From UHGV virus genome UHGV-1390503: a DNA stretch of 31,567 bases. One strand, given 5' to 3'. Shown piece after piece: positions 4,955-27,752 of the stretch. A program made the position numbers and the translations under genes. The DNA is from a virus. The notes under the pieces are model-generated. The model worked only from the letters and a program-made list of their open reading frames with translations. It was not told where the DNA came from and ran no database searches. The stretch's first letter is position 1. Every line of letters starts with the position of its first letter.

Positions 4955-4985
4955 TAGCTCATACCAAACGAGAGGAGAGAAACAA

Positions 4986-5495: not shown

Positions 5496-5502
5496 CTATC
5501 AC

Positions 5503-5524: not shown

Positions 5525-5538
5525 TGAGGGTCGGAATT

Positions 5539-5874: not shown

Positions 5875-6149
5875 TTTACCAACTCTACCAGGCCGTAGAC
5901 AGGCGGGATAACACAGAGGCGCTATGGCTATTACGTGCGCCGTCCGGTGCTCACCAGATGGAAGAGATGGCGTACTTGGGTAAAGTACCGCGGCCTAAGG
6001 ATATAGGCCGTCACTTGTCGCAGATTAAGCGCACGACTTTTGCCAAACCTGACTTTTATGTCTTCGAGTCGATGTATGGGTGGGCTATGCACTGCGAACA
6101 TAAGACACGGCATTTAATCGACCAGTGGGAGAACAGGGTATGTTTGTAA
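5871..6149 (+). CDS. Hypothetical protein
   Basis: 92 aa ORF, ATGA-coupled to the upstream gene. Confidence 0.5.
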   Translation: MIYQLYQAVDRRDNTEALWLLRAPSGAHQMEEMAYLGKVPRPKDIGRHLSQIKRTTFAKPDFYVFESMYGWAMHCEHKTRHLIDQWENRVCL

Positions 6150-6280
6150 TTATGTATTCAATCGGTGAGGAAGAGTACGAACACAGTAGATACCTTACAT
6201 CCGCAGAGGCTGAGAATATGATACACGAACTTGACGCTGGCAGTTTCGACTACGCATGGATTGAGGAGATTACGGAATGA
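6140..6280 (+). CDS. Small hypothetical protein (46 aa), below the track cut-off
   Basis: ATG 6140, stop TGA 6278-6280 overlapping the next ATG (ATGA); acidic product MFVIMYSIGEEEYEH... Confidence 0.35.
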   Translation: MFVIMYSIGEEEYEHSRYLTSAEAENMIHELDAGSFDYAWIEEITE

Positions 6281-6624
6281 CCGATAAATGGTGGCTTAAT
6301 CTGCGAAGTGGCGACAAGGTTTACACGGTCGGCGACCGCAGAAAGAACAGCGGCGTAGCTACTGTGCTACAAAACGGAAAAAAGTATATACACATTGCGC
6401 ATGAGGCTCGCGCGCTCCGCGTGAATAAATCGTCTGGCAGGCTTGAGGATTACCCGAAAACCTTAATATATAAAAGTGAAAAGCATCACATGGAGTCAAT
6501 TGACGCAAGACGACAGTTCGCAGGAATGTTGCAACAGTTAAGTGACTTACATCGTGATGATTCTTTCATTCCCACAGAAGAACAGTTACAGGCATTAAAC
6601 TTGTATTTGGAGGCGGTACGATGA
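6277..6624 (+). CDS. Hypothetical protein
   Basis: 115 aa ORF, translationally coupled. Confidence 0.5.
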   Translation: MTDKWWLNLRSGDKVYTVGDRRKNSGVATVLQNGKKYIHIAHEARALRVNKSSGRLEDYPKTLIYKSEKHHMESIDARRQFAGMLQQLSDLHRDDSFIPTEEQLQALNLYLEAVR

Positions 6625-7862
6625 TTCTAAAAGAACGTGGCGGCAATAACGATGTACACGCCTTACTGTCACCGTCTGGGGCTAAAAAGTGGCTTACGTG
6701 CAGCGCATCACTGGCCTGCGAAAAGGATATTCCTAATACGTCTGGCAAAGCCGCGGTATTAGGTACGGCTATGCACACCATAGCCGAGATGCATCTAAAC
6801 CAATACATCAAAGGCACTGCGTTGCCGTTAGAGCGCGAAGTCGGTGCTTACGTGCTGGATGAAGGCAAAGGCCAGATTAAGGCGCTAATCAGCCCGATGA
6901 AAGGCGCGGTACTGATTACGGCTGACATGATTGAGCAGGTGCGCAAGTACACTGACTACTGCAAACCGATTATCGACGTAGCGACTTACGCCAAGCTGGA
7001 AATGCGCGTCAATCTTACTGAGGTGCTACACCCTGGTTACGAAGGCGTTGAGACCTTCGGAACTGCTGACCTTGTTGCCGTTCAGGAACTGGCTAACACC
7101 GACGAGCACATGCTTATCATCGGCGACCTTAAAACTGGACGGCATCGTGTCGAAGCGAAGGAAAACAAGCAGCTTATGCTCTACGCTCTCGGTGTTTATC
7201 GTCGACTCAAGAGACGTTATAACATCACAGTTGTTCGTCTGGTCATCTTCCAGCCGTATGCCGGTGGTGCGTCGGAGTGGGACATCTCGGTTGAAGGTCT
7301 GGAACTGTTCGCCAAGTTCGCACAGAAACGCGCACTGTTAGCGCTTGATGCGTATTTCCGAGGCAAGAAGAACCTGAAAGCGTCGGACTTCAGGCCGTCA
7401 GTCGATGGTTGCCAGTGGTGTCGTTTCTCGGAGCAGTGTGCAGCGCGTACAAAAACCATTAACGCGGTACTGGCGGAAGAACTGGAGGACGATTTTGCAC
7501 TGGAACTGACGCCGGAGCAACTCGTAACTGAGTATGAGAAGTTGCCGTTGTTGTGTCAGCACATCGACAAGGTTGAGAAAGCTATGGCTGCCGCGTTGCA
7601 TTCCGGTAAGAAAGTTCCGGGGTACAAACTGGTTGAAGGCCGTCCCGGTAATCGCGCGTGGAAAGACGCGGATAAAGTAGCAGAACTCTACGGCGACAAG
7701 CTGACTAAAGAAGTGCTCATGTCACCTACCGAAGCTGTTAAAGTAATACCGGAAGAAGAACTGAAAGACTTCATTACCCGTAAGCCGGGTACACCATGTG
7801 TCGCAACGTCAGACGACAAACGTCCTGAGTGGAATCAGGTGACAGAGGAGGATTTAGAATGA
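6621..7862 (+). CDS. PD-(D/E)XK family nuclease with C-terminal Cys cluster (DUF2800/Cas4-like)
   Basis: 413 aa; D...IGDLKTG...QLMLYALG core and C-terminal CQWCRFSEQC; ends TEEDLE. Confidence 0.8.
   Translation: MILKERGGNNDVHALLSPSGAKKWLTCSASLACEKDIPNTSGKAAVLGTAMHTIAEMHLNQYIKGTALPLEREVGAYVLDEGKGQIKALISPMKGAVLITADMIEQVRKYTDYCKPIIDVATYAKLEMRVNLTEVLHPGYEGVETFGTADLVAVQELANTDEHMLIIGDLKTGRHRVEAKENKQLMLYALGVYRRLKRRYNITVVRLVIFQPYAGGASEWDISVEGLELFAKFAQKRALLALDAYFRGKKNLKASDFRPSVDGCQWCRFSEQCAARTKTINAVLAEELEDDFALELTPEQLVTEYEKLPLLCQHIDKVEKAMAAALHSGKKVPGYKLVEGRPGNRAWKDADKVAELYGDKLTKEVLMSPTEAVKVIPEEELKDFITRKPGTPCVATSDDKRPEWNQVTEEDLE
7839..7862 (+). repeat. 24-nt repeat GTGACAGAGGAGGATTTRGAATGA (copy 2)
   Basis: See copy 1 at 4414-4437. 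Confidence 0.8.
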
Positions 7863-8032
7863 TGGTTTATATTCTCACGCGGTACCACCGCCGATATTCT
7901 ATTCAAGAACTTGATATTATTTCTGTTCACGCTAAACGCGCCGACGCCGACAAAATTGCAGAAGAGAAGAACTCGAAGCATGAGGCGGTGCAGCCATATA
8001 TTTATAAGGTGGTCCCGAAGAAACTTAAATAA
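7859..8032 (+). CDS. Hypothetical small protein (57 aa)
   Basis: The track ORF starts at 7829; the in-frame ATG at 7859 lies in the ATGA overlap downstream of GAGGAGGA. Confidence 0.45.
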   Translation: MMVYILTRYHRRYSIQELDIISVHAKRADADKIAEEKNSKHEAVQPYIYKVVPKKLK

Positions 8033-8036
8033 AGTG

Positions 8037-8065
8037 TTGACACCTGAATAGTTGGCTATTATAGT
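8037..8065 (+). promoter_or_regulatory. Promoter/operator element copy 4 (TTGACA-N17-TATAGT with AATAG-ttgg-CTATT)
   Basis: Consensus -35 and -10 with 17-nt spacing, about 55 nt upstream of the SSB-like gene. Confidence 0.65.
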
Positions 8066-8118
8066 TCTAATCACTGGCCGGGCAGCTTCCCGGAGTAAAC
8101 TGAAAAGCGAGAAATCAA

Positions 8119-8745
8119 ATGGGACTGACATTAAATCTGCGTAAAGTAAACACTGCTTGGGTTAACGTATTTGAACGCGAAAAAGACCGTGAAAACGATG
8201 ATGGCTCAATCACTAAAGGCCAGTACAGCGCAACTATCATCCTGCCACCTGACCATGCTCAAATCGATGCGCTCTACGACACCGTTTACGCTGTAGTTGA
8301 AGAAGCCTTAGGCGCAGCCGCTGCTGAGAAGTGGATGAGGTCCAACTACGGCGAAGGTAAGCACATGGATAAATGCGCTATTAAAGACATTGCCGAGCGC
8401 GACAATCCGTTTGAAGACTTCCCGGAAGGTTTCTACTTCAAAGCGAAGGCACAGAAACAGCCGCTGATTATAACCTCTAAAAAAGGTGAGACTCAGGTAG
8501 AACAGGACTTCAATGTAGACGGCGAACAGATTGAAGGCGAACAGGTTTACAGCGGATGCGTCGCTAACGTAAGTGTTGAAATCTGGTTTAGCCAGAAATA
8601 TAAAGTCCTCGGGGTTAAACTACTGGGAATTAAATACATTGGTGAAGGTAAAGCGTTTGGTGGTTCTAAAGTCGCTGCAAGCGTCAATGACCTGGAAGAC
8701 GACGAAGAAGATGAAGCACCGCGCCGTGAACGTCGTCGCCGTTAA
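8119..8745 (+). CDS. Phage single-strand DNA-binding protein (DUF2815-like) with acidic C-terminal tail
   Basis: 208 aa; the sequence family is recalled as the SSB partner of DUF2800 nucleases; C-terminal NDLEDDEEDEAPRRERRRR. Confidence 0.7.
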   Translation: MGLTLNLRKVNTAWVNVFEREKDRENDDGSITKGQYSATIILPPDHAQIDALYDTVYAVVEEALGAAAAEKWMRSNYGEGKHMDKCAIKDIAERDNPFEDFPEGFYFKAKAQKQPLIITSKKGETQVEQDFNVDGEQIEGEQVYSGCVANVSVEIWFSQKYKVLGVKLLGIKYIGEGKAFGGSKVAASVNDLEDDEEDEAPRRERRRR

Positions 8746-8765
8746 TATCTGAATCAATTTAACTA

Positions 8766-8788
8766 AGGCCCTTCATTGGGCCTTTTTA
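8766..8788 (+). terminator. Rho-independent terminator
   Basis: AGGCCC-TTCATT-GGGCCT followed by TTTTT. Confidence 0.65.
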
Positions 8789-8804
8789 CTAAGGGTCGAA
8801 AATA

Positions 8805-9083
8805 ATGGCAGCGGAACTTAAGAGATACAGACGCATCACATACTGCAAATTTTGTAAGGCAGAAGGTAAAAAAGTTAGAGCAATTTGGATGACTAAATAC
8901 CCTCCAGCTTACGGTGTACGAGACTGGTATAAACACTATGCATGCGAGGAGCATAAACATTTAATAGAAGACACAGACCCAGACCGGACTTGGGCAGAAA
9001 TCATAGAACGCGGCAAAAACAAGAAACAAGAACGCGACGACTATCTCACAGAAGCAGACTATCAGACGTGGTACAGATTATGA
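8805..9083 (+). CDS. Hypothetical protein with Cys/His zinc-ribbon-like pattern
   Basis: 92 aa; CKFC...CEEHKH. Confidence 0.5.
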   Translation: MAAELKRYRRITYCKFCKAEGKKVRAIWMTKYPPAYGVRDWYKHYACEEHKHLIEDTDPDRTWAEIIERGKNKKQERDDYLTEADYQTWYRL

Positions 9084-11254
9084 ATACATTGCTTTACTTA
9101 GACTTTGAAACATTCTCCGAAGCCGATTTAAAGAAAGTCGGTTCCTACGCTTACGCCGAACATCCAACTACCGAAGTGCTAATCTGTACCTATGCTTTTG
9201 ATGACGAGCCTGTGCAGGTGTGGGACTGCACCGACGGCAGCGACATGCCGGGCGATTTGCACCGAGCGCTACGCCGTCTGGTGAAGCCGAACAGCCGTAT
9301 TAAGATGGTGTGGCATAACGGTGGACTTTTCGATAGGCTCATCATGAAACACTGCTGGGGCTTTGATATTCCGGTAAGCAACACCATTGATACGATGATT
9401 TGGGCGTTTCGCCACGCGTTGCCGGGTTCACTTGATGCGTTGTGCGAAGTGCTGGGTGTATCCGCCGACAACGCGAAAGATAAACGCGGCAAGGCGCTGA
9501 TTCAGCGTTTCTCTAAACCGACGCCTAAGAACTACAAAATCCGCCGTTATACCTCCGAAACGCACCCAGACGAGTGGGCGCTGTTCATCAAGTACGCCAT
9601 TAGCGACATCACCGCGATGCGTGAAGTCTTCCATAAACTGCCGCGGTGGGGTAACTCCGAGTTCGAAGACCGTGTGCTGGAACTGGACCAGTTAATCAAC
9701 GACCGCGGGTTTAAGGTTGACGTTGCACTGGCAGAAGCAGCGATTGAAGCCGTGGAGAAGCACAAGGCACAGTTACAGGAAGAAGCCCAACGCAAATACG
9801 GCGGCTCACTTACTGGTAAAGACTTTCTGCCGATTCTGCGTGAACTTGCGCCAGCGCACCGCATCCACAATGCGCAGAAGTCAACGCTGAATGACCTGCT
9901 AGCGGATGATGATTTACCGGACGACGCCCGCACGATTATCGAAATGCGCCTCGGGGCCGCGTCCACGGCATCAACGAAATATAATCCGCTGCTGTTGGGT
10001 CGCTCTTCGGACGACCGGCGCCGTGGTTGCATCCAGTATGGTGGAGCAAAGCGTACGTTACGATTTGCCGGTAAAGGCTTCCAGCCGCAGAACCTGGCGC
10101 GCGGTTACTACCACGATGAGGAACTGGATAAAGGTATTTCCGCGCTACTTAAAGGCCGTGCGCATCGCCGTTTTGATGTAGCTAAGCTAACGGCATCGAC
10201 GGTGCGTAGTTGCATCATACCGGAAGCTGGGCATAAGTTTGTTGTTGCCGACTACTCTAACGTTGAAGGCCGTGGGCTTGCGTGGCTGGCTGGTGAAGAC
10301 GATTTAATCGAAGTATTTGTAAACGGGGTTGATGTGTATAAAAAACTCGCATCAACGGTGTTCAACGTTGCCTATGAGGATGTAACAAAGGACCAAAGAC
10401 AAATAGCCAAAGCAATGGTTCTGGGCCTCGGCTACGCGGGGGGTGTCGGTGCTTTCGTAACGTTTGCTAAAAACTTAGGTCTTGATTTGAACGATATGAC
10501 CAGAACTTTAGACGGTACTTTCCCCGACCATATATGGGCTGCTACCGCGCGTGGGTATGAGTGGGCGCGTATCCAGGAGGCCAAGCGACCGCCACGTCCT
10601 GGTGAAAAGGATGACCGACCATCATATATACTTGATAAGAAAGTATGGAGAACATGTGACGCTCTGAAACGCATGTACCGAGAAGCTAATCCTGCAATAG
10701 TTCAATTCTGGCGTGACATTGAAGATGCGGCTATGGCGGCTATCCGTAATCCCGGTAAAGAGTTCACCGCAGGTCCGCGCGGCGTTAAGTTTTCGCGTAA
10801 CGTAGAAACAGACAACAACGGCAACAAAGTCGCGGGCTGGTGGTTGCGCATGACGCTGCCGTCAGGTCGCGTTATGTCTTACCCCGGAGTCGGGTTAAGC
10901 GTATCAAAAGAGACAGACGAAGAAGGGAAGGTGTCTACTAACGTGCGCATCAAATACCAGGGAGAGAACCAGTTAACACGTCAGTGGGGCTTTCAGTACA
11001 CCTACTCCGGTAAACTGGTGGAAAACTGCACCCAGGCGCTGTGTCGCGATTTGCTGGCTAATGCTCTGCTGAACGTAGAAGCCAACGGCTACCCGATTGT
11101 ACTTCACGTGCACGATGAGATTATCTGCGAGACACCGGATTTACCAGAATACAATGTTGCTGAGCTTGAGCGGTTGATGTGTGAATTACCAGAATGGGCG
11201 GAGGGGTTCCCTCTTGTAGCGGAAGGTCAGGAGTTAAAACGTTATGCTAAGTAA
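9080..11254 (+). CDS. Family A DNA polymerase with 3'-5' exonuclease domain
   Basis: The track ORF starts at 8990; ATG 9080 is ATGA-coupled. Exo I motif LDFETFS; polymerase motif A DYSNVEGR, motif B KAMVLGLGYAGG, motif C HVHDEI. Confidence 0.9.
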   Translation: MNTLLYLDFETFSEADLKKVGSYAYAEHPTTEVLICTYAFDDEPVQVWDCTDGSDMPGDLHRALRRLVKPNSRIKMVWHNGGLFDRLIMKHCWGFDIPVSNTIDTMIWAFRHALPGSLDALCEVLGVSADNAKDKRGKALIQRFSKPTPKNYKIRRYTSETHPDEWALFIKYAISDITAMREVFHKLPRWGNSEFEDRVLELDQLINDRGFKVDVALAEAAIEAVEKHKAQLQEEAQRKYGGSLTGKDFLPILRELAPAHRIHNAQKSTLNDLLADDDLPDDARTIIEMRLGAASTASTKYNPLLLGRSSDDRRRGCIQYGGAKRTLRFAGKGFQPQNLARGYYHDEELDKGISALLKGRAHRRFDVAKLTASTVRSCIIPEAGHKFVVADYSNVEGRGLAWLAGEDDLIEVFVNGVDVYKKLASTVFNVAYEDVTKDQRQIAKAMVLGLGYAGGVGAFVTFAKNLGLDLNDMTRTLDGTFPDHIWAATARGYEWARIQEAKRPPRPGEKDDRPSYILDKKVWRTCDALKRMYREANPAIVQFWRDIEDAAMAAIRNPGKEFTAGPRGVKFSRNVETDNNGNKVAGWWLRMTLPSGRVMSYPGVGLSVSKETDEEGKVSTNVRIKYQGENQLTRQWGFQYTYSGKLVENCTQALCRDLLANALLNVEANGYPIVLHVHDEIICETPDLPEYNVAELERLMCELPEWAEGFPLVAEGQELKRYAK

Positions 11255-11375
11255 ACTGATTATCGCGGTACTGGCGGGATTTGCCGCCGGTGTCTACTGT
11301 CACGAGGGTCAATACGGCATGATTGTCACCGTACTGGGCATGTTCATCGCAATTTATCTGTGGGTGCTGGAATGA
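11244..11375 (+). CDS. Small hydrophobic protein (43 aa), predicted membrane
   Basis: Not in the track. MLSKLIIAVLAGFAAGVYCHEGQYGMIVTVLGMFIAIYLWVLE; stop overlaps the next ATG. Confidence 0.3.
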   Translation: MLSKLIIAVLAGFAAGVYCHEGQYGMIVTVLGMFIAIYLWVLE

Positions 11376-11461
11376 AAATTTACTGGTTATACGAAGAAGA
11401 CTGTCGAATCTGTCCGCGTTGCGGGATTGAGTATACGAAACGTGAGGGGTGTGTATTATGA
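11372..11461 (+). CDS. Tiny Cys-rich ORF (29 aa)
   Basis: MKIYWLYEEDCRICPRCGIEYTKREGCVL; ATGA-coupled on both sides. Confidence 0.25.
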   Translation: MKIYWLYEEDCRICPRCGIEYTKREGCVL

Positions 11462-11652
11462 GTAACAAACCATTTAGCAAGAAACTAGCCGCGTTAGTGG
11501 ATATGCCAGAATGGGAATTTATCATGGTAATGGGAGATGGGTTCTTTAGTGACGTTTGTTCAGGATGTACGCACAAAGGTGTTTACTACACGGAACACGA
11601 CATCTATCAAGCGTACTTCCTGCGCAACCCAGATGAGGAGCCGTTGTTATGA
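11458..11652 (+). CDS. Hypothetical protein (64 aa)
   Basis: The track ORF starts at 11449; ATG at 11458 lies in the ATGA overlap. Confidence 0.45.
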   Translation: MSNKPFSKKLAALVDMPEWEFIMVMGDGFFSDVCSGCTHKGVYYTEHDIYQAYFLRNPDEEPLL

Positions 11653-11801
11653 CAATGTTTGTATTTTGGACGATAGTAACCATGCTCGCACTGTTGCTCG
11701 GTGCTGGAATAGCCGCGATGTTCTGTTATGGCCTGTTCTTTAAGTTTGTTGGCGTTGCCGTTCTCGGTGGGGCTTTCCTTACCTGGATTCTGCGGTCATG
11801 A
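11649..11801 (+). CDS. Small membrane protein (50 aa, two hydrophobic helices)
   Basis: MTMFVFWTIVTMLALLLGAGIAAMFCYGLFFKFVGVAVLGGAFLTWILRS; ATGA-coupled to both neighbours. Confidence 0.35.
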   Translation: MTMFVFWTIVTMLALLLGAGIAAMFCYGLFFKFVGVAVLGGAFLTWILRS

Positions 11802-12112
11802 CTAAAGAGGGCCGTGTACAGAAATACACAAAAGAGCGATTCGAGGCCCTGGGGGGCCTCGTTCGTAAACTTTCCTACGAAGGACGTTCTGGTGCTCCTG
11901 ACCTGCTGGTAATTCTCCCTGGCGGCATCATCTGGTTTGTCGAGGTTAAGAAAGACGAGAACACGAAGCCAGACCCCCACCAGTTACGAGAGCATGCGCG
12001 TATGCGTAAACGTGGTGCAAATGTTTTTGTCGTCGGGTCGATAAAACAGGTTGACACCCTAATAGCAGACTATTATAGTAAGCACATACCCCAACAATAT
12101 AAGGAATTATAA
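11798..12112 (+). CDS. VRR-NUC domain nuclease
   Basis: 104 aa; PDLLVIL...GIIWFVEVKKDENTKP...HQLREHARMRKRGANVFVV matches the VRR-NUC core as recalled. Confidence 0.75.
   Translation: MTKEGRVQKYTKERFEALGGLVRKLSYEGRSGAPDLLVILPGGIIWFVEVKKDENTKPDPHQLREHARMRKRGANVFVVGSIKQVDTLIADYYSKHIPQQYKEL
12051..12079 (+). promoter_or_regulatory. Promoter/operator element copy 6 (TTGACA-N17-TATAGT with AATAG-caga-CTATT), inside the 3' end of the VRR-NUC gene
   Basis: Read directly; about 35 nt upstream of the ATG at 12114. Confidence 0.55.
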
Positions 12113-12113
12113 A

Positions 12114-12368
12114 ATGGCTATCGAACTTCAACTGTCAGTAAACACCATGATTCTCGGTTCAATCGATTCATCTGTCCGCGTCGGTAAATACACAGGAGCG
12201 TCAGCTAATTACTCATGGTCTATGAAGGTTTCGGAAGTAAACCGTATCCTGGGTTTCGGGTCAGTTGGCCGCAAGGTGCTTACGGAAGACGTAGCTAAAG
12301 GGCTGTCTGTAGACTTTACAACGGCTGGCGAACTTATTAAGCAAGTTCAAGCCGAATTATCTAACTAA
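12114..12368 (+). CDS. Hypothetical protein
   Basis: 84 aa ORF with ATG. Confidence 0.5.
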   Translation: MAIELQLSVNTMILGSIDSSVRVGKYTGASANYSWSMKVSEVNRILGFGSVGRKVLTEDVAKGLSVDFTTAGELIKQVQAELSN

Positions 12369-12407
12369 TACAGGCCCTTCGGAGCCTTAACTATAAGGAA
12401 TTGAGAA

Positions 12408-12599
12408 ATGAAACACGAATACGACCGCAAACCAGCACGTGACATCGTACCGGGTGACATGATTTTCAACGTTAAGACACGTCGTCCTGTTGCCGTTGAT
12501 ACGGTGTTCGTCGAGTCGAATGGTAAACTGGTTATAGAAGATGTAACCGGTAACGTCACGGCGTTCGGGCGGAAGGAATTGGTACTGGTGGCAAAATGA
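12408..12599 (+). CDS. Hypothetical protein
   Basis: 63 aa; RBS AAGGAATTGAGAAATG. Confidence 0.5.
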   Translation: MKHEYDRKPARDIVPGDMIFNVKTRRPVAVDTVFVESNGKLVIEDVTGNVTAFGRKELVLVAK

Positions 12600-12844
12600 A
12601 CTATTACAATGAATGGGATAAAGGCGCTGCTGCGTGGCTGCGTGAATTAATAAAACAGGGTCAAATACCTTTTGGGGTCGTAGATGAAAGAAGCATTACC
12701 GAAGTTAAGCCAGAAGACCTTGACGGGTTCACCCAGTGTCATTTTTTTTGCTGGCATCGGCGGCTGGCCTCTCGCGCTCAGACTTGCGGGAGTTTCGGAA
12801 GATACGCCTCTCTGGACGGGAAGCCCGCCTTGCCAACCGTTTAG
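12596..12844 (+). CDS. ORF whose first 48 codons resemble a C5-methyltransferase N-terminal segment; becomes out of frame with the methyltransferase body at a T8 tract
   Basis: MNYYNEWDKGAAAWLRELI... resembles the NEWDK-type segment of M.HhaI as recalled; after the T8 run (12742-12749) the product looks like alternate-frame sequence. Confidence 0.35.
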   Translation: MNYYNEWDKGAAAWLRELIKQGQIPFGVVDERSITEVKPEDLDGFTQCHFFCWHRRLASRAQTCGSFGRYASLDGKPALPTV

Positions 12845-13421
12845 TGCAGCAGGAAAACAACTCGGACAGTTCGACCCGAGACACCTCGCGACAGTCTTCC
12901 TCAACCTCATCAGCGAGTGCCGCCCTCCAGTCATCTTTGGGGAACAGGTTGCGCCAGCAATTGCAAAATCGTGGATGTGCGATTTACAAGCTCATCTGGA
13001 AGGAGAAGACTACGCCGTCGGGTTTGCCGTACTCCCAGCTTGTAGCATCGGCGCACCGCATAAAAGAGAGCGACTCTTCTTTGGTGCGTACCAACTGGCC
13101 GACACCGACAGCGAACGATTACAAAGGGAGCGGAGAGACAGTGATTCGCAAGGACGGGAAGGACAGAACATTCGACAGGCTGGACTACTCAACGGAGCAG
13201 GGGCTGAAAATAGCACAACCAATCCGCACCACGGCTTCTGGTCAGATGCTGACTGGCTCGGATGCCGGGATGGAAAATTCAGGCCAGTTGAACCCGGCAC
13301 ATTCCCGCTGGCTAATGGGATACCTGCCAGAGTGGGACGATTGCGCGGTTACGGCAATGCCATCGTCCCGCAAGTAGCCGCTGAATTTATAAAGGCGTTC
13401 ATGGGGGCGGTAAATGAGTAA
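12684..13421 (+). CDS. DNA (cytosine-5)-methyltransferase, apparently frame-disrupted
   Basis: In this frame: FAGIGGW (motif I), SPPCQPFSAAGK (IV), VIFGEQV (VI), GAPHKRERLFF (VIII), GNAIVPQVA (X). The expected WPTP segment and motif IX (RWLMGYLPEW) are in the +1 frame (ORF 12736..13377). Confidence 0.6.
   Translation: MKEALPKLSQKTLTGSPSVIFFAGIGGWPLALRLAGVSEDTPLWTGSPPCQPFSAAGKQLGQFDPRHLATVFLNLISECRPPVIFGEQVAPAIAKSWMCDLQAHLEGEDYAVGFAVLPACSIGAPHKRERLFFGAYQLADTDSERLQRERRDSDSQGREGQNIRQAGLLNGAGAENSTTNPHHGFWSDADWLGCRDGKFRPVEPGTFPLANGIPARVGRLRGYGNAIVPQVAAEFIKAFMGAVNE
12742..12749 (+). repeat. Homopolymeric T8 tract at the junction of two methyltransferase-related reading frames
   Basis: ATTTTTTTTG read directly; T7 would fuse QCHFF (upstream frame) to AGIGGW (motif I). 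Confidence 0.9.
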
Positions 13422-14838
13422 GTTTCAAAGGCGCGAGTACCAGAAGCTCATGACCTCGTTCATGTTGCGACACCATCGCTGTAATATTTGGGCGAGCATG
13501 GGCGCCGGGAAGACTGGCAGCGTACTGTGGGCATTAAACCGACTGTTTCGCAACGGGCAGCTTACGGACGACGACCGCGTGTTAATCCTGGCCCCGCTGC
13601 GAGTTGCGTCGGGTACGTGGCCTGCAGAACAAGGGAAATGGCAATTCCCGTGTCTGAGTGTCGTCGATGCGACCGGTTCAGAGAAGCGTCGCATCGCGGC
13701 GCTGGAGTCAGACGCTAACGTGGTGTGCACTAACTACGAAGTTATAGAGTGGTTGATTGACTACTACGGCAAAGACGACTGGCCTTTTACGGTTATCGTT
13801 GCTGATGAAAGCACGAAGCTGAAATCGTTCCGCAGCCGTTCAGGGGGTAGCAAGCGTGCAAAGGCGCTAAGCAAAGTGGCGTTCGGTAAGGTTAAGCGAT
13901 TTATTAACCTCACCGGCACACCATCACCAAACGGCCTCAAAGACTTGTGGGGCCAGAACTGGTTTATCGACGCTGGCGAGCGCCTGGGTTCTTCATATAC
14001 CGCATTCACCGACCGATGGTTTAACTCGGTGCAGAAAGGCAAATCCGCGATGGCGCGTGAGTATCATGCGCGCCCAGGTGCGGATAATGAGATTCACCAG
14101 AAGATGAAGGACATTAGTCTCACGATTGACGCCGCCGAGTGGTTTGGTTGCGAAGCGCCGATTATTGTGCCGGTGGAAATTGATCTGCCGAAGAAAGCGC
14201 GTCAGGCGTACATCGATATGGAGGAGAAGCTATTCGCGGAACTGGAGAGCGGAGAAGTTGAAGCGGCTAACGCTGCGGCGAAGACGTCGAAGTGTCTGCA
14301 GATTGCATCCGGCGCCGTGTATGTATCAGGGCCAGACGGAGAAGCAACCAAAGACTGGGAGAAAGTGCACGACACGAAACTGGATGCGCTCGAGTCGATT
14401 GTTGAGGAGTTGCAGGGTGCGCCGTTGCTTGTGGCTTATCAGTTCAAGCACGAACTGGAACGCATCCTGAAACGTTTCCCGCAGGCCCAGGCGTTTGCAA
14501 AAGGTGCTAAGGGCAATAAGCAGATGGAAGCGTGGAACCGTGGTGAAATTGAAATCTTATGCGTCCACCCCGCGTCAGCCGGGCATGGTTTGAATTTACA
14601 GGACGGAGGACACCATCTGGCGTTTATTTCGCAAGGCTGGAACCTTGAGCACTATTTGCAGGTCGTTGAACGTATAGGCCCGGTACGCCAGAAACAGGCG
14701 GGCCACGAGCGCCCGGTGTTCCTCTATCACATCGTTGCTAAAGACACACTGGATGAGGTTGTTGCCGCGCGTACGGACGAGAAGAAATCGGTACAGGAAG
14801 AGCTGCTTAATTATATGAAGAGACGAGGTAAGAAATGA
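13414..14838 (+). CDS. DEAD/DEAH-box (SNF2-like) superfamily 2 helicase
   Basis: 474 aa; Walker A MGAGKTGS, DExx-like VADEST, C-terminal helicase-like region; ATGA-coupled to the methyltransferase. Confidence 0.75.
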   Translation: MSKFQRREYQKLMTSFMLRHHRCNIWASMGAGKTGSVLWALNRLFRNGQLTDDDRVLILAPLRVASGTWPAEQGKWQFPCLSVVDATGSEKRRIAALESDANVVCTNYEVIEWLIDYYGKDDWPFTVIVADESTKLKSFRSRSGGSKRAKALSKVAFGKVKRFINLTGTPSPNGLKDLWGQNWFIDAGERLGSSYTAFTDRWFNSVQKGKSAMAREYHARPGADNEIHQKMKDISLTIDAAEWFGCEAPIIVPVEIDLPKKARQAYIDMEEKLFAELESGEVEAANAAAKTSKCLQIASGAVYVSGPDGEATKDWEKVHDTKLDALESIVEELQGAPLLVAYQFKHELERILKRFPQAQAFAKGAKGNKQMEAWNRGEIEILCVHPASAGHGLNLQDGGHHLAFISQGWNLEHYLQVVERIGPVRQKQAGHERPVFLYHIVAKDTLDEVVAARTDEKKSVQEELLNYMKRRGKK

Positions 14839-21143: not shown

Positions 21144-23453
21144 TTAATACCCCGGCTGACCGCGAGTAGAGCGGCGAGCTTTAGAAATCGGTGAGTTGTT
21201 ATCCTGTAACTGCGACGCTACTGTTTCACTGATTATAATACGTAAACGCCCCTCGTCATCACGTTCTGTTACGGCGGAATCCACACGGCCAGTGGTATTA
21301 TTGACGATGGTGACATTATCACCGCCGGACGGGCCGCCGTTTTGACCCATAATCTCTTTCATCTGCTGCGCGGTTCGTACGCGCGATGCACCCGCTGGCA
21401 TGATAACTTCTGGTTTACCGCGTTCAGCGATAGTAGACATCTGGCCTGCTGATAGCTGCCCACCCTGTTCACGTGCGGAACGAATCTTACCTATGTTAGC
21501 CATACCGGCGGCTACGGCGGCGGCGGCGGCAACCGGTGCCAGGAATGGCCCCACAACCGGTATCGCTGCTGTGGACTTATACGCCTCAATGGCGGAGGTG
21601 TACGTGGCGATTGTGGCCTGAGCTATAGCGAAGGCTTTATACGCGGTGGACGCCTCGCCAAATGCAGTTTTAGCATTAGCCGCCATGTCACCGAAGGCAT
21701 CCCCGGTGGCTTTGGCACGCTTCATTGAATACTGTTCATCCAGAGCCAGGAGCGCCATCTGGTACTGCTCGGCGTTAATTATGCCGTCAGCCATGTATTT
21801 TGAGAGGATTCTCGCTTTTTGGGACTGTTGTATTTCCAGAAGCTCAAGCTCAGCAGCATTCTGACCCATAATCTGAGCCATGAAGTCGTCGCCTTTCTGC
21901 TGCTTTTCCTGCTGCTCTTTTCTTATCTTATCCAGTTCTTCCTGGCGGGCCTGTTCAGCAGAGAGCATAATCTGCGTCTTGGCGTTTTCATACTGCTGCT
22001 GGCTTATAGTTCCGGCGCGGTTGAATTCTTCAAGTTTCGCCAGTTTCTGTTCTTCTGCCGCTGTGATACGTGAAATTTCGTCTCCAGTTGTGCGGTCGAC
22101 AGTAGCAAGGAAATCTTCCGCTGCTTTTTTCTGCCGTTCAGCTGCGGTTTCTTCGCGTTTGGCTTGTGCCGCCAGACGTTTCTCGTTCGATTTAGCCTCG
22201 CGGTCTGCCTTCGCTTTTTCGGTAGCGTCGATGCGAGCGATGTCTTGCTGTGCTTCCGTGTCACGGGCAGCGTTATACGCGGCTATCTGTTCTTTGGTGA
22301 CAGCTTCACGTTTAGCAAACGCCTGCTTATCAAGTTCAGCTTGTGCCCGGATACGCTCGCGGTCGCTTAAGATGGCGATTTGCTGGTTCTTAACGATAGC
22401 TTCGTTCTGTTCCTGGAATCTCTGCGTCGTTGAGTTGACGTTACGACCGAGATTCTTTTGGGCCTCCGCCGCAGCGTTTGCCGACTTCTCAGCGTTCTCC
22501 AGTGCCGTAGCATTCTTGTTGGCATTGTCGGTCAGGCGGATAAGTTCCGGGTTCAGCTGTTTTGTGTTGCCCAGCCAGTCGGTAAACACATCGGCGATGC
22601 GACGAGCATTCTCAGCGGTCGGCTCTTTATTAAACGCGCTCTGTGCCGCTATCATCTCCAGCGCCTGGTCACGGTTAACCCCAAACTTACTGCTAAGCTC
22701 TGCGATATTCTGCGCCAGCATGTTGACGCCTACGATGTTACCCTCGTAGGTTCCCCCGAGTTTTTCTAAAGTGTCGCCTACATCAGCACCCTTAGAAACC
22801 AATGCATCGTACTGGCTAATAGCTGATGCAGTGGAGGCTTTCCATGTTTCCCACGATTCGGCATCTTCACGAACAGCTTTAGCGGTTTGCTGCGCGATAA
22901 GGTCTGCGTTAGCCTTAGCCAGAGCAAGCTGAGTCTCCGCTGCTTCTCTGCTGATTTGGGTAAGCTGGATGAGGCCATCTGTCAGTTCGAGAGAGCCAGA
23001 TGCCGTTTGCTGGAAGGTGTCTTTTAACTGTTTCTGCGCGGCTTCGAGGTCTTTTGAACTCCCCTCCGCCTCTGTTAGCGATTTGTACAGGACACCGCCG
23101 ATTGCTGACGCAAGAGCAATTACAGCCCCAAGCACCGCCCCACCGGGGCCAAAAGCACCCGCAAGCTGCGAACCTTGTTGCCCGATTGCTACGAATGCAG
23201 ACGTGCCGGATTGCAACTGGACTACCATGTCCTGCACCTGGAAGCCAACCTGCCCTGCGGCGTTACGGAACTTAGCGAAACCGTCGGAGGCCGCTTTAGA
23301 CGTAGCGGAGTTTACTTTATTAACATCCGGAGTTAGTTTGTTTACGGATGCATCCGCCCGGTCTGCAGATGCCGCCATAGCGTCAAGCTGTTTGGCAGCG
23401 ACGTCAGCCCCTTCAGTTTTTACTCTGGCGATTAGGGAAGCCGTATCAGCCAT
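21144..23453 (-). CDS. Tail tape measure protein
   Basis: The track ORF starts at TTG 23468; ATG 23453 has GAGGG upstream. About 770 aa, Ala/Gln/Lys-rich and coiled-coil-like, downstream of the chaperone ORFs. Confidence 0.8.
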   Translation of the reverse strand: MADTASLIARVKTEGADVAAKQLDAMAASADRADASVNKLTPDVNKVNSATSKAASDGFAKFRNAAGQVGFQVQDMVVQLQSGTSAFVAIGQQGSQLAGAFGPGGAVLGAVIALASAIGGVLYKSLTEAEGSSKDLEAAQKQLKDTFQQTASGSLELTDGLIQLTQISREAAETQLALAKANADLIAQQTAKAVREDAESWETWKASTASAISQYDALVSKGADVGDTLEKLGGTYEGNIVGVNMLAQNIAELSSKFGVNRDQALEMIAAQSAFNKEPTAENARRIADVFTDWLGNTKQLNPELIRLTDNANKNATALENAEKSANAAAEAQKNLGRNVNSTTQRFQEQNEAIVKNQQIAILSDRERIRAQAELDKQAFAKREAVTKEQIAAYNAARDTEAQQDIARIDATEKAKADREAKSNEKRLAAQAKREETAAERQKKAAEDFLATVDRTTGDEISRITAAEEQKLAKLEEFNRAGTISQQQYENAKTQIMLSAEQARQEELDKIRKEQQEKQQKGDDFMAQIMGQNAAELELLEIQQSQKARILSKYMADGIINAEQYQMALLALDEQYSMKRAKATGDAFGDMAANAKTAFGEASTAYKAFAIAQATIATYTSAIEAYKSTAAIPVVGPFLAPVAAAAAVAAGMANIGKIRSAREQGGQLSAGQMSTIAERGKPEVIMPAGASRVRTAQQMKEIMGQNGGPSGGDNVTIVNNTTGRVDSAVTERDDEGRLRIIISETVASQLQDNNSPISKARRSTRGQPGY

Positions 23454-23829
23454 CTTCTCTGCCCTCAAATATTCCGTCCAGGCCCATGATAACCTCGGCC
23501 TCGAACAAACTTATGCCGTAACCGGCGACATCGCGAAACGCTACCAAATCTTGCCATTTGAGCGCATCGCGCGGGATTATAACGATAGTATCATCTGTTT
23601 CGCGCTGTAGGAATTTAATGGCACGGTATTTCTCGAACACGTCGATAAGAGAAACGGGGCATTCTGGCCCCGTCGCTTCTTTCATCTGCGGTTCTTTAAT
23701 CACGCCCATTGCAATCAAAGCCGCCTGGTGGCCTGCTGCGATGTCGTCGAATTGCTTACGTTTGTGGCGGTCGACAAAGCACCATTGCGCAAATTCATAC
23801 AGCGCTTTTACTTTTCCGAAAGTTTCTCA
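23446..23829 (-). CDS. Tail assembly chaperone frameshift extension (lambda gpT-like), probably expressed as a fusion
   Basis: Open frame from 23826 with no nearby ATG or RBS (the track uses TTG 23718); it is in the -1 frame relative to 23808..24224 and overlaps its last 6 codons, where GGAAAAG lies. Confidence 0.45.
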
Positions 23830-24224
23830 CGACTGTCGGTGTGGTGCTTAACTACGGCTTCTGCCAGCCCGCTGTACTGGTCGAACAGGTTAGCCAGTGC
23901 CTCTTTGCGGAAAGGTTCGTCGAACGACCAACCGGTGACGATTTCAACGGCAAGCTGCTTGTTCAGGTCCATCACCCGCCAGCCCTTCTCATCGTTATAG
24001 CGTGCCCAGTTATTCAGTGCCTCACACTCTTTATCTAATGGCGCAAGTTCTTCCGTAAGGCGTCGAATTGCCGTTGTGTAGGCGCGGCCTGCGCGAACAC
24101 CGGCATCACAATCGGGGCCGATAACCTGTAGCCATTCACCGGAATCTTTACCACTCGGCAGAAGGATAGGCATTTTAGTGCCTACAGCATGGCGGTCAGC
24201 AAAATAAAAATCAGAAAGTTTCAT
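23808..24224 (-). CDS. Tail assembly chaperone (lambda gpG-like)
   Basis: 138 aa; RBS AAGGA; immediately upstream of the tape measure gene; terminal codons sit in the GGAAAAG motif. Confidence 0.55.
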   Translation of the reverse strand: MKLSDFYFADRHAVGTKMPILLPSGKDSGEWLQVIGPDCDAGVRAGRAYTTAIRRLTEELAPLDKECEALNNWARYNDEKGWRVMDLNKQLAVEIVTGWSFDEPFRKEALANLFDQYSGLAEAVVKHHTDSREKLSEK

Positions 24225-24330
24225 TCTTTAATCCTTTGGTTAAGAGGTTACTGGTTAAGATTAACGCGCCAGACGGGAACCACCCGCTTTTCGTGTGCGA
24301 CACTAGGCGCAAACTTATTCTAGCACACTA

Positions 24331-24365
24331 CTTGCGCACCCCAATATAATAGGGTACTATTCGCC
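24331..24365. promoter_or_regulatory. Promoter/operator element copy 5, inverted relative to copy 1
   Basis: Revcomp GAATAGTACCCTATTATATTGGGGTGCGCAAG matches copy 1 at 31 of 34 positions; read rightward TTGCGC-N17-TACTAT (24332-24360) would drive the island; read leftward it would drive the tail genes. Confidence 0.55.
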
Positions 24366-24388
24366 TGTAACTTACTGAGGAAATAATT

Positions 24389-24715
24389 ATGCGTAAATTA
24401 GTGTTAGCTCTTGGTTTTATGTCTTTTGCTACTTTTGGGTCTCCGTGTGAACAGGTGTTTAGTGAATCCGTTCTTATGACTTCTGGTGTGCTTGATAAAG
24501 CCGACCCTACTATTGTAAAGGCATTTAAAGACTCTACCGTTCGCGAGTGTGAGGCCGCTGTAGAGGTTGGTAAATCTGGTCTGCCTCCGCAAGCGGTGAC
24601 TTACACCGTGGTGCGTTCCGTAGAGAAAGACGGAGACGCGTTCTACAGCCTGCTAACAGCTACCCGTCTGCAAATGGTGATGACTGGATGGGCGATAGGC
24701 GCGGAAAGTAAATAG
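24389..24715 (+). CDS. Secreted/periplasmic small protein with N-terminal signal peptide
   Basis: 108 aa; MRKLVLALGFMSFATFG followed by a mature part with two Cys; RBS GAGGAA; opposite strand to the surrounding structural genes. Confidence 0.6.
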   Translation: MRKLVLALGFMSFATFGSPCEQVFSESVLMTSGVLDKADPTIVKAFKDSTVRECEAAVEVGKSGLPPQAVTYTVVRSVEKDGDAFYSLLTATRLQMVMTGWAIGAESK

Positions 24716-24780
24716 TTGCCTTTATTTAAAGGAACGCACTGTGGTTAAATAGGACAAATCCTAAACACGAGGAAGTAAGC

Positions 24781-25911
24781 ATGGCCAGGAAGAAAATAAC
24801 CGACGAGCAGTTACAGGAAGAATTGAACGCCGGGATGAAGAATATCGACATTGCCCGTAAATACGGCATCTCAGACCGCGTTATTCGTATACGTAAAGCG
24901 AAACTAGCGAAGAAAGGAGTTGGTCACGGGCGGGACGTCAGCCACCTTGTGCCAGATGGCTACAAGATTAAAGGGACGTCGTCTCTGGTGGACGAGTTCG
25001 GCAACACTAAGTTGCAATGGGTTAAGACTGACACCGATGTCGAACGTCAGGTTGAATTGATGAAAGCCGTAATCGAAGGCATGAAGTCAGAGATTACGCC
25101 CGTCGCACCTGTTAAAGCAGCACGCGCCAAACGCGACGACAAGTTACTCAATCTTTACACGGTATCTGATTTCCATCTCGGTATGCTGGCCTGGGCCGAC
25201 GAGAGCGGCGACGACTGGGATATGAAGATTGCTGAAGACTTGTTCTCCCGTTGGTTCGATGCAGCGTTTCAGAAAGCGCCGGATTCAGGAACTGGGGTTA
25301 TTAACCTGCTGGGTGACCTCGCGCACTTCGACAGTCTGGTTGCTGTTACACCGGCAAGCGGTAATGTTCTTGACGCCGATACCCGCTACCAGAAACTGGT
25401 ACGCTACATGATTCGTATGGTACGTCGTGTTGTCGATATGGCCCTTGTTAAGCATAAAAATGTTCGCTTGCTTATCGTACAAGGGAATCATGACGAAAGC
25501 GGAATGATTTGGTTAGCTGAGATGTTCAGCACGCTATACGACAATGAGCCTCGTGTGTTCGTCGATACTTCGCCAGATGTTTACAAGATGGTGCAACACG
25601 GCAAAACGACGCTGTTCTTCCATCATGGGCATAAAGCGCGCTTCGACGCTATCGAACCAGTTATGATTGCCAAGTTCCGCAAAGCATTCGGCGAGAGCGT
25701 TTATAGCTACGCCCACGTAGGCCACCTGCACCACCAAAAGATTGTAGAAAGCCGTAACATGATTGTTGAGCAACACCGCACCTTAGCGGCCAAAGACGCC
25801 TACGCATCCAGAGGCGGTTGGATGTCGGGCCGTAGTGCAAATGTAATTACTTATAGCGCCGAATACGGCGAGGTCGCACGTTTAACTATTTCACCGGAGA
25901 TGCTGGGATGA
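24781..25911 (+). CDS. Calcineurin-like metallophosphoesterase with N-terminal HTH-like basic domain
   Basis: 376 aa; DFHLG, GDLAHFD, GNHDE, HHGH and GHLHH occur in the order of the metallophosphoesterase signature; the first 50 aa resemble a helix-turn-helix. Confidence 0.7.
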   Translation: MARKKITDEQLQEELNAGMKNIDIARKYGISDRVIRIRKAKLAKKGVGHGRDVSHLVPDGYKIKGTSSLVDEFGNTKLQWVKTDTDVERQVELMKAVIEGMKSEITPVAPVKAARAKRDDKLLNLYTVSDFHLGMLAWADESGDDWDMKIAEDLFSRWFDAAFQKAPDSGTGVINLLGDLAHFDSLVAVTPASGNVLDADTRYQKLVRYMIRMVRRVVDMALVKHKNVRLLIVQGNHDESGMIWLAEMFSTLYDNEPRVFVDTSPDVYKMVQHGKTTLFFHHGHKARFDAIEPVMIAKFRKAFGESVYSYAHVGHLHHQKIVESRNMIVEQHRTLAAKDAYASRGGWMSGRSANVITYSAEYGEVARLTISPEMLG

Positions 25912-26138
25912 CTTCAAAATACAACCGCACAATGACAAATACTCACGGCAGCACAATGACAGTAGACGTTTATGATGTGCTACGCGCCTTCGACATCCGC
26001 GACCCTGCACTACAGCACGCATTGAAGAAGCTGCTGTGTATGGGTCTTCGTGGGCACAAGGACACCGGAACCGACTTAGCGGAAGCAATTGAAAGTCTGG
26101 AGAAGTTACGGGAGTATAGAAGCAATATTGATGAGTGA
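25908..26138 (+). CDS. Small phage protein (possibly DUF3310-like, from weak memory)
   Basis: 76 aa; ATGA-coupled; the LQHALKKLLCMGLRGHKDTGTDLAEAIESL segment. Confidence 0.45.
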   Translation: MTSKYNRTMTNTHGSTMTVDVYDVLRAFDIRDPALQHALKKLLCMGLRGHKDTGTDLAEAIESLEKLREYRSNIDE

Positions 26139-26142
26139 GAAA

Positions 26143-26166
26143 AAGGCCCCTTCCGGGGCCTTAGTT
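26143..26166. terminator. Bidirectional rho-independent terminator
   Basis: AAGGCCCC-TTCC-GGGGCCTT with TTTTT on the minus strand; near-identical to the terminator at 15207-15226. Confidence 0.7.
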
Positions 26167-27333
26167 TTATGCGTAGGTGATACGCTGGATAACGATAGAC
26201 GACTGGTACTGGTTGCCTGTAGCCTGTCCTTCTATGCTCTGAGTGATTGACTCAGGTCCGCCAATCTCAGGTGTAACCGCCGTGAGTTCCGCACGTTTCA
26301 GGCTGAAAGACATAGCCCCGTTTACCCCCGCCAGAATAGAGTTAATCTCTACCTGCTGTTCGTTGATAAACTTCTGAATCATAGCCATGTCGTACAGCTT
26401 ACCGGAGATGGAGAAGGTGTTAGCTGCGCGGCCTCGCTCCACGAACGCGACGCTACTGTTGCCTAGCTCGAACTGTGCGGACGCACCGTTGTCGTTGGTG
26501 ATAGTTAGAGTATCGCAACGCAACGGCGTAGAACCGTCGAACACAGACACATCTACAGACGAGAACGGCTCATCGGTGAACGTCACCTGGGAGAAATCAG
26601 AGCCAGACGGCGGGGTGGTAAGAATCTCCTGACTCAGACCAATGAACGGGAAGCTACCAGTCACCATCGCGTTTACAGCCTGTTCAATGGTGAAACCGGA
26701 GATTTCCACGCCTTTGGTCAACATGTACGCGTCCGGGTTCCCGCACTGGCCTTTGAACCATGTCAGAATGGAGAACGTCTTACACGCGTTACCGGTTTCC
26801 AGCTTGTCGCCAGTTTTAGCGTCGGTGGTTACAGTCTCTGCGGTCAGCGTGTGCTGAATGCCCGCGCCCGTTACTACCAGAGCGGAAGCCGCGGTAACGA
26901 TAAACGGTTTTGCGTTGTCGCCGGTTAAGTCGGTGAACGCAATCAGGTCGCCAACTTCTACACCGTCAGTAATGAAGCTACCGGCAGCGCGGGTGAATGT
27001 TTTACCTGCTGGGGCGACCGTAATTTCGGCACCCGTAATCTCTACCCCTGCTTGCCACGTAGAAGTCATCGCGCCAGCAAGGAAATCATCCTGACTACGG
27101 GAGCTAAGTTCGATGGCGTACTCCCCGCTAACCTGTTTGTTACCGGTGCGGATAGACGTAGTTTCACGGCTGCCGTCAAGTTCGTTGGAAGTAAGCGCAT
27201 CGCGGGTTACCGCTGGAACACCGCCGGTATTACGCAACGGCGACCAGACCGGGTTAGTAGGTGTTACGCCCGGGGTAGTTTCCGCCACATAGAATTGCGC
27301 GGTATTCGCGCCCTTAAAAGGAGTTGTAGCCAT
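26167..27333 (-). CDS. Major tail (tube) protein
   Basis: The track ORF starts at GTG 27339; ATG 27333 has AAGAGG upstream. About 388 aa, Thr/Gly/Ser-rich and beta-rich, placed after the tail-completion genes and ending at a strong terminator. Confidence 0.55.
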   Translation of the reverse strand: MATTPFKGANTAQFYVAETTPGVTPTNPVWSPLRNTGGVPAVTRDALTSNELDGSRETTSIRTGNKQVSGEYAIELSSRSQDDFLAGAMTSTWQAGVEITGAEITVAPAGKTFTRAAGSFITDGVEVGDLIAFTDLTGDNAKPFIVTAASALVVTGAGIQHTLTAETVTTDAKTGDKLETGNACKTFSILTWFKGQCGNPDAYMLTKGVEISGFTIEQAVNAMVTGSFPFIGLSQEILTTPPSGSDFSQVTFTDEPFSSVDVSVFDGSTPLRCDTLTITNDNGASAQFELGNSSVAFVERGRAANTFSISGKLYDMAMIQKFINEQQVEINSILAGVNGAMSFSLKRAELTAVTPEIGGPESITQSIEGQATGNQYQSSIVIQRITYA

Positions 27334-27335
27334 AT

Positions 27336-27752
27336 TCACAGCCTCTTGGTGAATGCAATAAAGTTAATTGACAATGGTCGTTTGGCCCATCCGTTTTCTA
27401 CAATCAGCGGCCCCAGGCTAACCGATTGAACCTCGGCGCAGATGTCGTTACGCGAAAATGACTTACCTGCTTTAAACGCCGTGTTAAGTAAGTCTGCCAT
27501 TTTATTGATTGGCGCGCTACCTTTCACCGACGCGTAGTTAATGTCGACCTGATAAATACCAGAGCGTTGTTCCGTGAAGAACAAATCTGCCTGTTCCGTA
27601 TCAGCCAGCAACATGTAACTTGCCAGATATGGCGTATCTGTTGACGTCGGTGCATCGATATTTTCAAGCGCTACCCTGATGCCGTTGGTGGTCCCGAAGG
27701 CTACCAGCGGCACATCGAACGCTTTTGTTAAGTCCTCAAAGTAGCCCATCAT
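27336..27752 (-). CDS. Tail terminator/completion protein (lambda gpU-like position)
   Basis: 138 aa ORF, ATGA-coupled. Confidence 0.45.
   Translation of the reverse strand: MMGYFEDLTKAFDVPLVAFGTTNGIRVALENIDAPTSTDTPYLASYMLLADTEQADLFFTEQRSGIYQVDINYASVKGSAPINKMADLLNTAFKAGKSFSRNDICAEVQSVSLGPLIVENGWAKRPLSINFIAFTKRL

Follow-up and report, generated by a model that had tools for sequence, protein, structure and literature searches.

The virus genome stretch UHGV-1390503 (31,567 nucleotides, here called the window) belongs to a Kagunavirus-like siphophage of the subfamily Guernseyvirinae and carries an island of three plus-strand genes, encoding proteins of 108, 376 and 76 amino acids, which interrupts the leftward genes between those for the tail-tube protein and the tail chaperone. 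A reading made earlier from the letters alone (the sequence-only reading) had described three rightward genes inside the leftward tail operon, and the open reading frames are found exactly as claimed, with both flanks on the minus strand. The island genes are:

24389..24715, plus strand: p108, an open reading frame of 108 amino acids with a signal-peptide-like N-terminus (phrog_14165)
24781..25911, plus strand: a helix-turn-helix (HTH) metallophosphoesterase of 376 amino acids, hereafter MPE (PHROG 704)
25908..26138, plus strand: p76, an open reading frame of 76 amino acids

The MPE stop codon and the p76 start codon share an ATGA overlap. At the DNA level, the island shares 92% identity with Kagunavirus LM08P1 and ~90% with the BASEL phages Bas70-76. 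All three genes show dN/dS values of 0.01-0.08 against relatives, indicating strong purifying selection.

The translation of the MPE carries the motifs SDFHLG, GDLAHFD, QGNHDE, FHHGH and GHLHH, which the sequence-only reading had taken as the mark of a metallophosphoesterase fold. These motifs fall on invariant columns of the family: in an alignment of 54 diverse homologues, D130, H132, G178, D179, N236, H237, H282, G314 and H317 are invariant, and H182, D184 and H315 are conserved in at least 90% of the members. The invariant residues from D130 to H317 constitute a complete metallophosphoesterase ligand set (DxH, GD, GNH[DE], H, GHxH). The AlphaFold2 model of the protein is confident (mean predicted local distance difference test score, pLDDT, of 92), contains the β-sandwich fold of the superfamily and divides the protein into three parts:

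residues 8-44 (nucleotides 24802-24912), plus strand: HTH, formed by three helices
residues 61-103, plus strand: β-hairpin plus helix
residues 119-376 (nucleotides 25135-25908), plus strand: catalytic domain

The N-terminal HTH, likewise proposed from the letters, is thus seen in the model and also in a weak Pfam match to a GerE-type HTH at residues 14-45. The Pfam profiles of the catalytic domain gave a less clear result, as Metallophos and Metallophos_2 both scored below their gathering thresholds (19.2 bits vs 21.5, and 20 bits vs 27, respectively), and the MPE is therefore a divergent member of the superfamily that is recognised through its motifs and structure. The profile search and structure prediction that had been proposed as a check gave clearer results outside Pfam: PHROG 704, labelled 'DNA repair exonuclease', is matched over the full length (E 3.7e-166; residues 4-375 on profile positions 2-389 of 390), and the nearest folds are those of nucleases. 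In addition, the MPE is 99% identical to an annotated protein of phage RP180.

Fold comparison of the model gave the highest scores with the PolD DP1 exonuclease (15.7), Mre11 (15.2) and SbcD (15.0), followed by LpxH (13.8), Rv0805 (12.3) and Ser/Thr phosphatases (8.5-9.4), and Mre11 was ranked first by Foldseek. A profile of the catalytic domain compared with the sequences in the PDB weakly matched Thermotoga Mre11/SbcD chains (E 0.25) over motifs I-II, aligning SDxHLG with SDWHLG and GDLLH with GDLLH; the sole other match was an unrelated and weaker chain (E 1.3).

The family to which the MPE belongs is large. By tblastn it was found in 2,055 phage records of several phage families, including Guernseyvirinae, Dhillonvirus (75% identity), T1 and other Drexlerviridae (~45%), Webervirus (41%) and Eracentumvirus podophages (48%), as well as phages of Vibrio, Rhodobacter, Ruegeria, Microcystis, Flavobacterium and Campylobacter. 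An exhaustive HMMER scan yielded 4,620 clusters at 50% identity. The type of N-terminal HTH varies among the longer members (Sigma70_r4, HTH_11, HTH_23 or HTH_30, with two in one member), and this recurrence of different HTHs makes the combination of HTH and MPE a trait of the family. PADLOC and NCBIfam gave no informative matches for p108, the MPE or p76.

Between Kagunavirus and Jerseyvirus, the MPE is more conserved (87.5% amino acid identity) than either of its neighbours, the tube protein reaching 72% and the chaperone 59%. Within Guernseyvirinae, two allele classes of the MPE are observed, at ≥87% and ~55-61% identity (GenBank MN927225, XY1, and NC_073183, NBSal007). In one related locus (L062, 4001-5155) the first ~60 residues of the MPE match those of the window exactly and the remainder is divergent, with an HNH-like open reading frame immediately downstream. 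This pattern suggests recombination, perhaps aided by homing endonucleases.

The junction between the tube and chaperone genes was compared in 73 IMG/VR loci found via the MPE and, independently, in 64 loci found via the tube protein, of which 58 contained both the tube and the chaperone gene. At tube identities of at least 89%, the MPE lies between the two genes in all of the 33 tube-anchored loci. The slot upstream of it holds p108 in 8 loci, a 68-amino-acid protein of the Imm_superinfect family (PF14373, E 1.2e-12) in 24, and nothing in 1. The downstream slot is occupied by p76 in 17 of these loci and by a pair of genes in 16, the pair encoding a HAD_PNKP 3'-phosphatase (E 3e-19, phrog_415) and a deoxynucleoside monophosphate (dNMP) kinase (phrog_139, E 1e-43). 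All four combinations of upstream and downstream content were found with the same MPE, and an HNH gene is inserted in some loci. At tube identities of 81% or less, the MPE is absent from the junction in 25 of 25 loci, which are empty there or hold 1-3 other small opposite-strand genes, among them p108 homologues (37-39% identity), an Imm-like gene and small membrane proteins. In the complete Guernseyvirinae genome of Enterobacter phage phiEap-2 the junction holds a p108 homologue alone (phrog_14165, E 1e-41), and neither tblastn nor a family-profile search found an MPE anywhere in this genome, which shows that the function of the MPE is dispensable. Jerseyvirus AG11 carries the same trio as the window.

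The variable content of the slots identifies the junction as a hot spot for cargo genes. The p108 family looks like an older resident, the MPE is a cargo gene that has become fixed in Kagunavirus and Jerseyvirus, and p108 and p76 are independent, exchangeable cargo around it. The view of the three genes as a cassette that forms a unit does not survive this comparison, since within Kagunavirus and Jerseyvirus the MPE alone is constant and the genes before and after it are exchanged independently of each other. The description of the island as moron-like holds insofar as it is an accessory slot whose content varies among relatives and which is empty or otherwise filled in more distant phages; it does not hold for the MPE itself, which is not private to this phage and is already annotated.

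Further evidence comes from the neighbours of the MPE in other phages. Erwinia phage S2 carries, in this order, the genes for a 5'-3' exonuclease, endonuclease VII, the MPE, HAD_PNKP, a dNMP kinase and a DNA ligase; Webervirus Domnhall and Kagunavirus of the K1H/RP180 type share the order MPE, HAD_PNKP and dNMP kinase; and in one Campylobacter phage a ligase gene precedes the MPE. In T1 and Dhillonvirus the MPE is located amid early, lysis or packaging-proximal genes, without HAD_PNKP, kinase or ligase partners. These neighbours place the MPE in DNA or nucleotide metabolism. The context does not decide between a nuclease whose products are recycled and an enzyme that cleans DNA ends before ligation, and leaves these two readings level.

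Taken together, the invariant motifs of the MPE, the confident model, the recurring HTHs, the neighbours from DNA metabolism, the purifying selection and the mosaicism of the slots argue for a DNA-tethered, Rad50-independent nuclease or phosphodiesterase of the Mre11/SbcD type, which would serve auxiliary DNA or nucleotide metabolism from within a cargo hot spot. The probability of this reading is put at about 0.5. The MPE would be transcribed by the host RNA polymerase from a sigma-70-like promoter, apart from the structural genes; the HTH would keep the enzyme on DNA, and a two-metal centre would cut phosphodiester bonds at DNA ends, nicks or structures. The enzyme may serve to break down host DNA, the products being recycled by the 3'-phosphatase and dNMP kinase where relatives have these, or, equally possible, to trim DNA ends so that recombination or repair can follow. 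A precedent is the A1 protein of phage T5, which is predicted to be a metallophosphatase and is encoded near the dNMP phosphatase Dmp; it is both required and sufficient for the degradation of the host chromosome (bioRxiv 10.64898/2026.04.02.716235).

Several observations weigh against this reading. The fold scores separate the nucleases from other branches of the superfamily by a modest distance (15.7 vs 13.8), and the sequence matches between the MPE and Mre11 are not statistically significant. The MPE differs from Mre11/SbcD in that it has no capping domain and instead possesses the N-terminal HTH plus β-hairpin module. No Rad50/SbcC-like gene was found among the open reading frames of the 31.5-kb window, which is not the whole genome, and the HAD_PNKP phosphatase and the dNMP kinase are both lacking in the window. 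Homology to T5 A1 was tried and rejected, as hhalign gave a probability of 16% over 20 columns and nothing beyond a GNHD-like superfamily motif. The dispensability of the MPE fits an auxiliary role and fits an anti-defence role equally well. Finally, the literature searched gave no biochemistry or experiment on any member of the MPE family, and nothing relevant to the family was found in the literature on experiments with Drexlerviridae and Kagunavirus, on escape mutants or in essentiality screens.

A bolder form of the nuclease reading, possible but on the whole improbable, is that T1-like, Dhillonvirus, Webervirus and Guernseyvirinae phages use the MPE as their offensive nuclease, one that has so far escaped identification. 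Host DNA or the DNA of defence elements would be broken down early in infection, feeding salvage by the 3'-phosphatase and the dNMP kinase. The Tunavirinae phage Bas12 triggers an m6dAMP sensor, and its nuclease is not named in the corresponding studies (the Metis and PUA-Cal-HAD papers); the triggering fits with T1-like phages degrading host DNA. That methyltransferases encoded by the phage, often close by, might protect its own DNA is pure speculation. Its one basis is a DNA methyltransferase gene a few genes from the MPE in three unrelated carriers, namely T1, Webervirus Domnhall and Rhodobacter phage RcMcLean. The annotation of phiEap-2, which has no MPE, lists no methyltransferase, but this sample is too small for an association to be claimed.

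The alternative that survives best, although it is itself unlikely, regards the MPE as an end-healing enzyme that clears 3'-phosphates, 2',3'-cyclic phosphates or adducted ends from DNA or RNA that host nucleases have cut, in the manner of counter-defence by repair known from T4 Pnkp/Rnl and from the MPE domain of bacterial Pnkp. Its partners would be a PNKP-type 3'-phosphatase, a kinase and a ligase, and genes for a HAD_PNKP phosphatase and a P-loop kinase do neighbour the MPE in three phage lineages that are unrelated to one another, as a DNA ligase gene does in two. Dispensability at the level of the subfamily is in line with such a role. The neighbour context sits equally well with a nuclease whose products are recycled.

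The sequence-only reading had also considered a phosphodiesterase that degrades cyclic-nucleotide immune signals, for which no positive evidence was obtained. In its wider form, in which cyclic (oligo)nucleotide signals of CBASS, Pycsar, Thoeris or type III CRISPR are degraded, this explanation suits a dispensable gene and is nevertheless very improbable. A DNA-binding HTH is conserved throughout the MPE family, nucleases outrank cyclic-nucleotide enzymes in the structure comparison, the neighbours in other phages belong to DNA metabolism, and PADLOC was without matches. Furthermore, the MPE is unusually conserved for such a gene (97-100% identity over >100 clusters), a 2026 survey of phage and pathogen cGAMP phosphodiesterases names the 2H, poxin, DHH and HD-GYP folds and not the MPE fold, and the resistance profile of the BASEL Kagunavirus phages is not unusual.

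Still more doubtful is a protein phosphatase or transcription factor, whose HTH would target promoters or RNA polymerase and whose MPE domain would dephosphorylate a protein like the lambda Ser/Thr phosphatase. The HTH does resemble GerE/LuxR and sigma-70 region 4, and there is a weak match to a PHROG family labelled late transcriptional activator; the Ser/Thr phosphatases are the most distant of the folds compared. That the three genes form one co-adapted system, in which an enzyme would act together with a secreted component and with a small protein for regulation or immunity, can hardly be upheld, as their common strand, promoter and terminator, the translational coupling of MPE and p76 and the intact trio of AG11 are outweighed by the occurrence of all four p108/Imm and p76/HAD-plus-dNMP-kinase combinations with the same MPE, by p108 homologues standing alone in phiEap-2 and other loci, and by MPEs without either partner in T1, Dhillonvirus and others.

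The two smaller proteins are best considered as cargo in their own right. The N-terminus of p108 consists of MRK followed by a 13-residue hydrophobic stretch and a small-residue -3/-1 site before S18 (SFA|H in the Jerseyvirus equivalent), and C20 and C54 are invariant. In the AlphaFold2 model residues 1-15 have a pLDDT <50, and the mature part of ~91 amino acids is all-helical with a pLDDT of ~90. The claim that the first product is secreted is thus retained as plausible, on the basis of conserved signal-peptide-like features read from the sequence, and p108 may be a periplasmic cargo protein. A Foldseek search of the model against the PDB gave no significant structural match and Pfam gave no match for p108; its sequence matches are confined to Guernseyvirinae-type phages, with 22 clusters in the homology search. 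The Imm-family protein that takes the p108 slot in other loci would be in keeping, if loosely, with an envelope-level role of p108, for instance in superinfection exclusion.

For p76, which may act as a small cytoplasmic cargo protein, the relatives are small stand-alone proteins of 61-127 amino acids with a strongly conserved motif (KY.R..DVYDVL.AF..PA.QHALKKLLC.GLRGHKD..DL.EA). Matches are also found in longer PHROG families, at their C-terminal ~60-70 positions, and one of these families is labelled ATPase. In one GenBank record the gene under the p76 match is labelled "DUF3310 protein"; Pfam gave no hit for p76.

The regulatory elements of the island and the genes that flank it are:

24332..24360, plus strand: promoter-like site read from the sequence, TTGCGC (24332-24337), a 17-nucleotide spacer and TACTAT (24355-24360)
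26143..26162, both strands: bidirectional intrinsic terminator, AAGGCCCC-TTCC-GGGGCCTT, with an 8-bp stem, 6 G-C pairs and T-runs on both strands
24266..24301, no strand assigned: conserved non-coding block, GCGCCAGACGGGAACCACCCGCTTTTC..GTGCGAC, between the start of the chaperone gene and the island promoter
26167..27339, minus strand: tail tube (major tail) protein gene, right flank (Phage_tube_2, E 1.3e-38)
23808..24224, minus strand: tail assembly chaperone gene, left flank (Phage_TAC_4, 2.4e-08), first gene of the leftward chaperone-tape measure unit
23446..23718, minus strand: second chaperone gene (Phage_TAC_18), followed by the tape-measure gene

The position and spacing of the promoter-like site are kept in 9 Kagunavirus and 2 Jerseyvirus loci, where the form TTGCAT-N17-TATTAT is found. 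A consensus promoter scan listed no plus-strand site at 24332-24360, the site being below the threshold of the scan; the proposal of an island promoter of its own is nevertheless upheld by this conservation in two genera. An alternative perfect TATAAT at 24345-24350, also named in the sequence-only reading, is not kept in Jerseyvirus, and TTGCGC-N17-TACTAT is preferred. The bidirectional terminator is upheld: its RNA fold beats 200/200 shuffles on each strand (z -4.8 on the plus strand and -4.05 on the minus strand), and its T-run is stronger on the minus strand. With folds on both strands and T-runs on both sides, it can end the transcripts of both the island and the tube gene.

The block GCGCCAGACGGGAACCACCCGCTTTTC..GTGCGAC is present in one copy in the window and is invariant between Kagunavirus and Jerseyvirus while the surrounding intergenic DNA diverges. 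It likely lies in the 5' leader of the leftward chaperone/tape-measure transcript. An RNA hairpin was considered for the conserved 27-nucleotide block and rejected, as the fold is no better than that of shuffles and not significant. On the minus strand at 24317-24325, an extended -10-like TGcTAGAAT facing left was noticed by eye, with the Jerseyvirus form TGcTATTCT. If this site is a promoter, the chaperone and tape-measure genes would be self-promoted, back to back with the island promoter, and the late tail genes would be transcribed as two separate units, with the break at the terminator: transcription of the tube gene would end at the bidirectional terminator, and the chaperone genes would probably restart from their own leftward promoter. 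A temporal transcriptome of Kagunavirus vB_Eco_K1B4 (PMC12645636) names only the Imm gene (K1B4_045), and the island genes could not be mapped in it.

The chaperone open reading frames at 23446-24224 on the minus strand (138 amino acids, followed by the TAC_18 frame of 90 amino acids) correspond to a coding sequence annotated in phage K1H as two joined pieces, presumably the product of a programmed frameshift. Elsewhere in the window, a plus-strand replication module at 2155-14838 encodes an AAA_25 primase-helicase, NinX, a ProQ-C-like protein, a DUF2800 PD-(D/E)XK nuclease, an Enc34-type single-stranded DNA-binding protein, a family A polymerase, a C5 cytosine methylase and an SNF2 helicase. 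Scans of the window with Rfam and for tRNAs gave no matches.

Since many deposited genomes already carry the island genes with an annotation, the novelty is low, and the advance is incremental also in that the specific cassette hypothesis fails. The interest lies in the MPE family, which is very large, strongly conserved and routinely labelled "DNA repair exonuclease" on annotation alone, and whose carriers are in part candidates for therapy or belong to model collections, for example BASEL Bas70-76 and the relatives of T1. Once known, the role of the MPE, be it in host DNA degradation, phage DNA repair or counter-defence, would close a real gap in annotation. In addition, the junction of the tube and chaperone genes, equipped with a promoter and a terminator of its own, is a defined site of natural insertion and may help in engineering Kagunavirus and Jerseyvirus genomes.

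Among known systems, PHROG 704 has the same HTH plus MPE architecture and includes the window protein as a member, although the name of this family is an annotation only. The likeness to Mre11/SbcD lies in motif II, GDLxH, where GDLAH of the window protein aligns to GDLLH of Thermotoga Mre11, with H182 near-invariant. The small subunit DP1 of archaeal PolD, a 3'-5' proofreading exonuclease, shares 12% identity with the MPE; there is no DP2 partner, and the window phage has a family A polymerase. A nuclease MPE of Pseudomonas putida belongs to a DNA-repair cluster with a helicase and a ligase; its structural match is much weaker than that of Mre11 or DP1, and it has no HTH. The class III cyclic-nucleotide phosphodiesterases (CpdA/Icc/Rv0805) are not the closest branch to the MPE in structure or sequence, and the PPP-type Ser/Thr phosphatases (lambda PP) are neither its closest structure nor the source of a shared motif, as GDxVDRG is absent from the MPE.

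The island resembles the morons of lambdoid phages in that it is a cargo slot on the opposite strand, has a promoter and a terminator of its own and varies in content, but the window phage is virulent and its MPE cargo is fixed across two genera. The suggestion that the secreted protein is Cor-like is contradicted by the comparison with Cor, to which p108 has no detectable similarity; p108 lacks a lipobox, with F-G-S-P before C20 (Pro at -1) and A-T-P-C in phiEap-2. T5 A1 is likewise a stand-alone MPE-type phage protein encoded near a nucleotide phosphatase, comparable to the arrangement of MPE, HAD phosphatase and dNMP kinase in some relatives, whereas it differs in its size (556 amino acids), in being essential and in being confined to Demerecviridae. 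If the MPE does act as an offensive nuclease, it would correspond to T5 A1 in function, with an independent origin.

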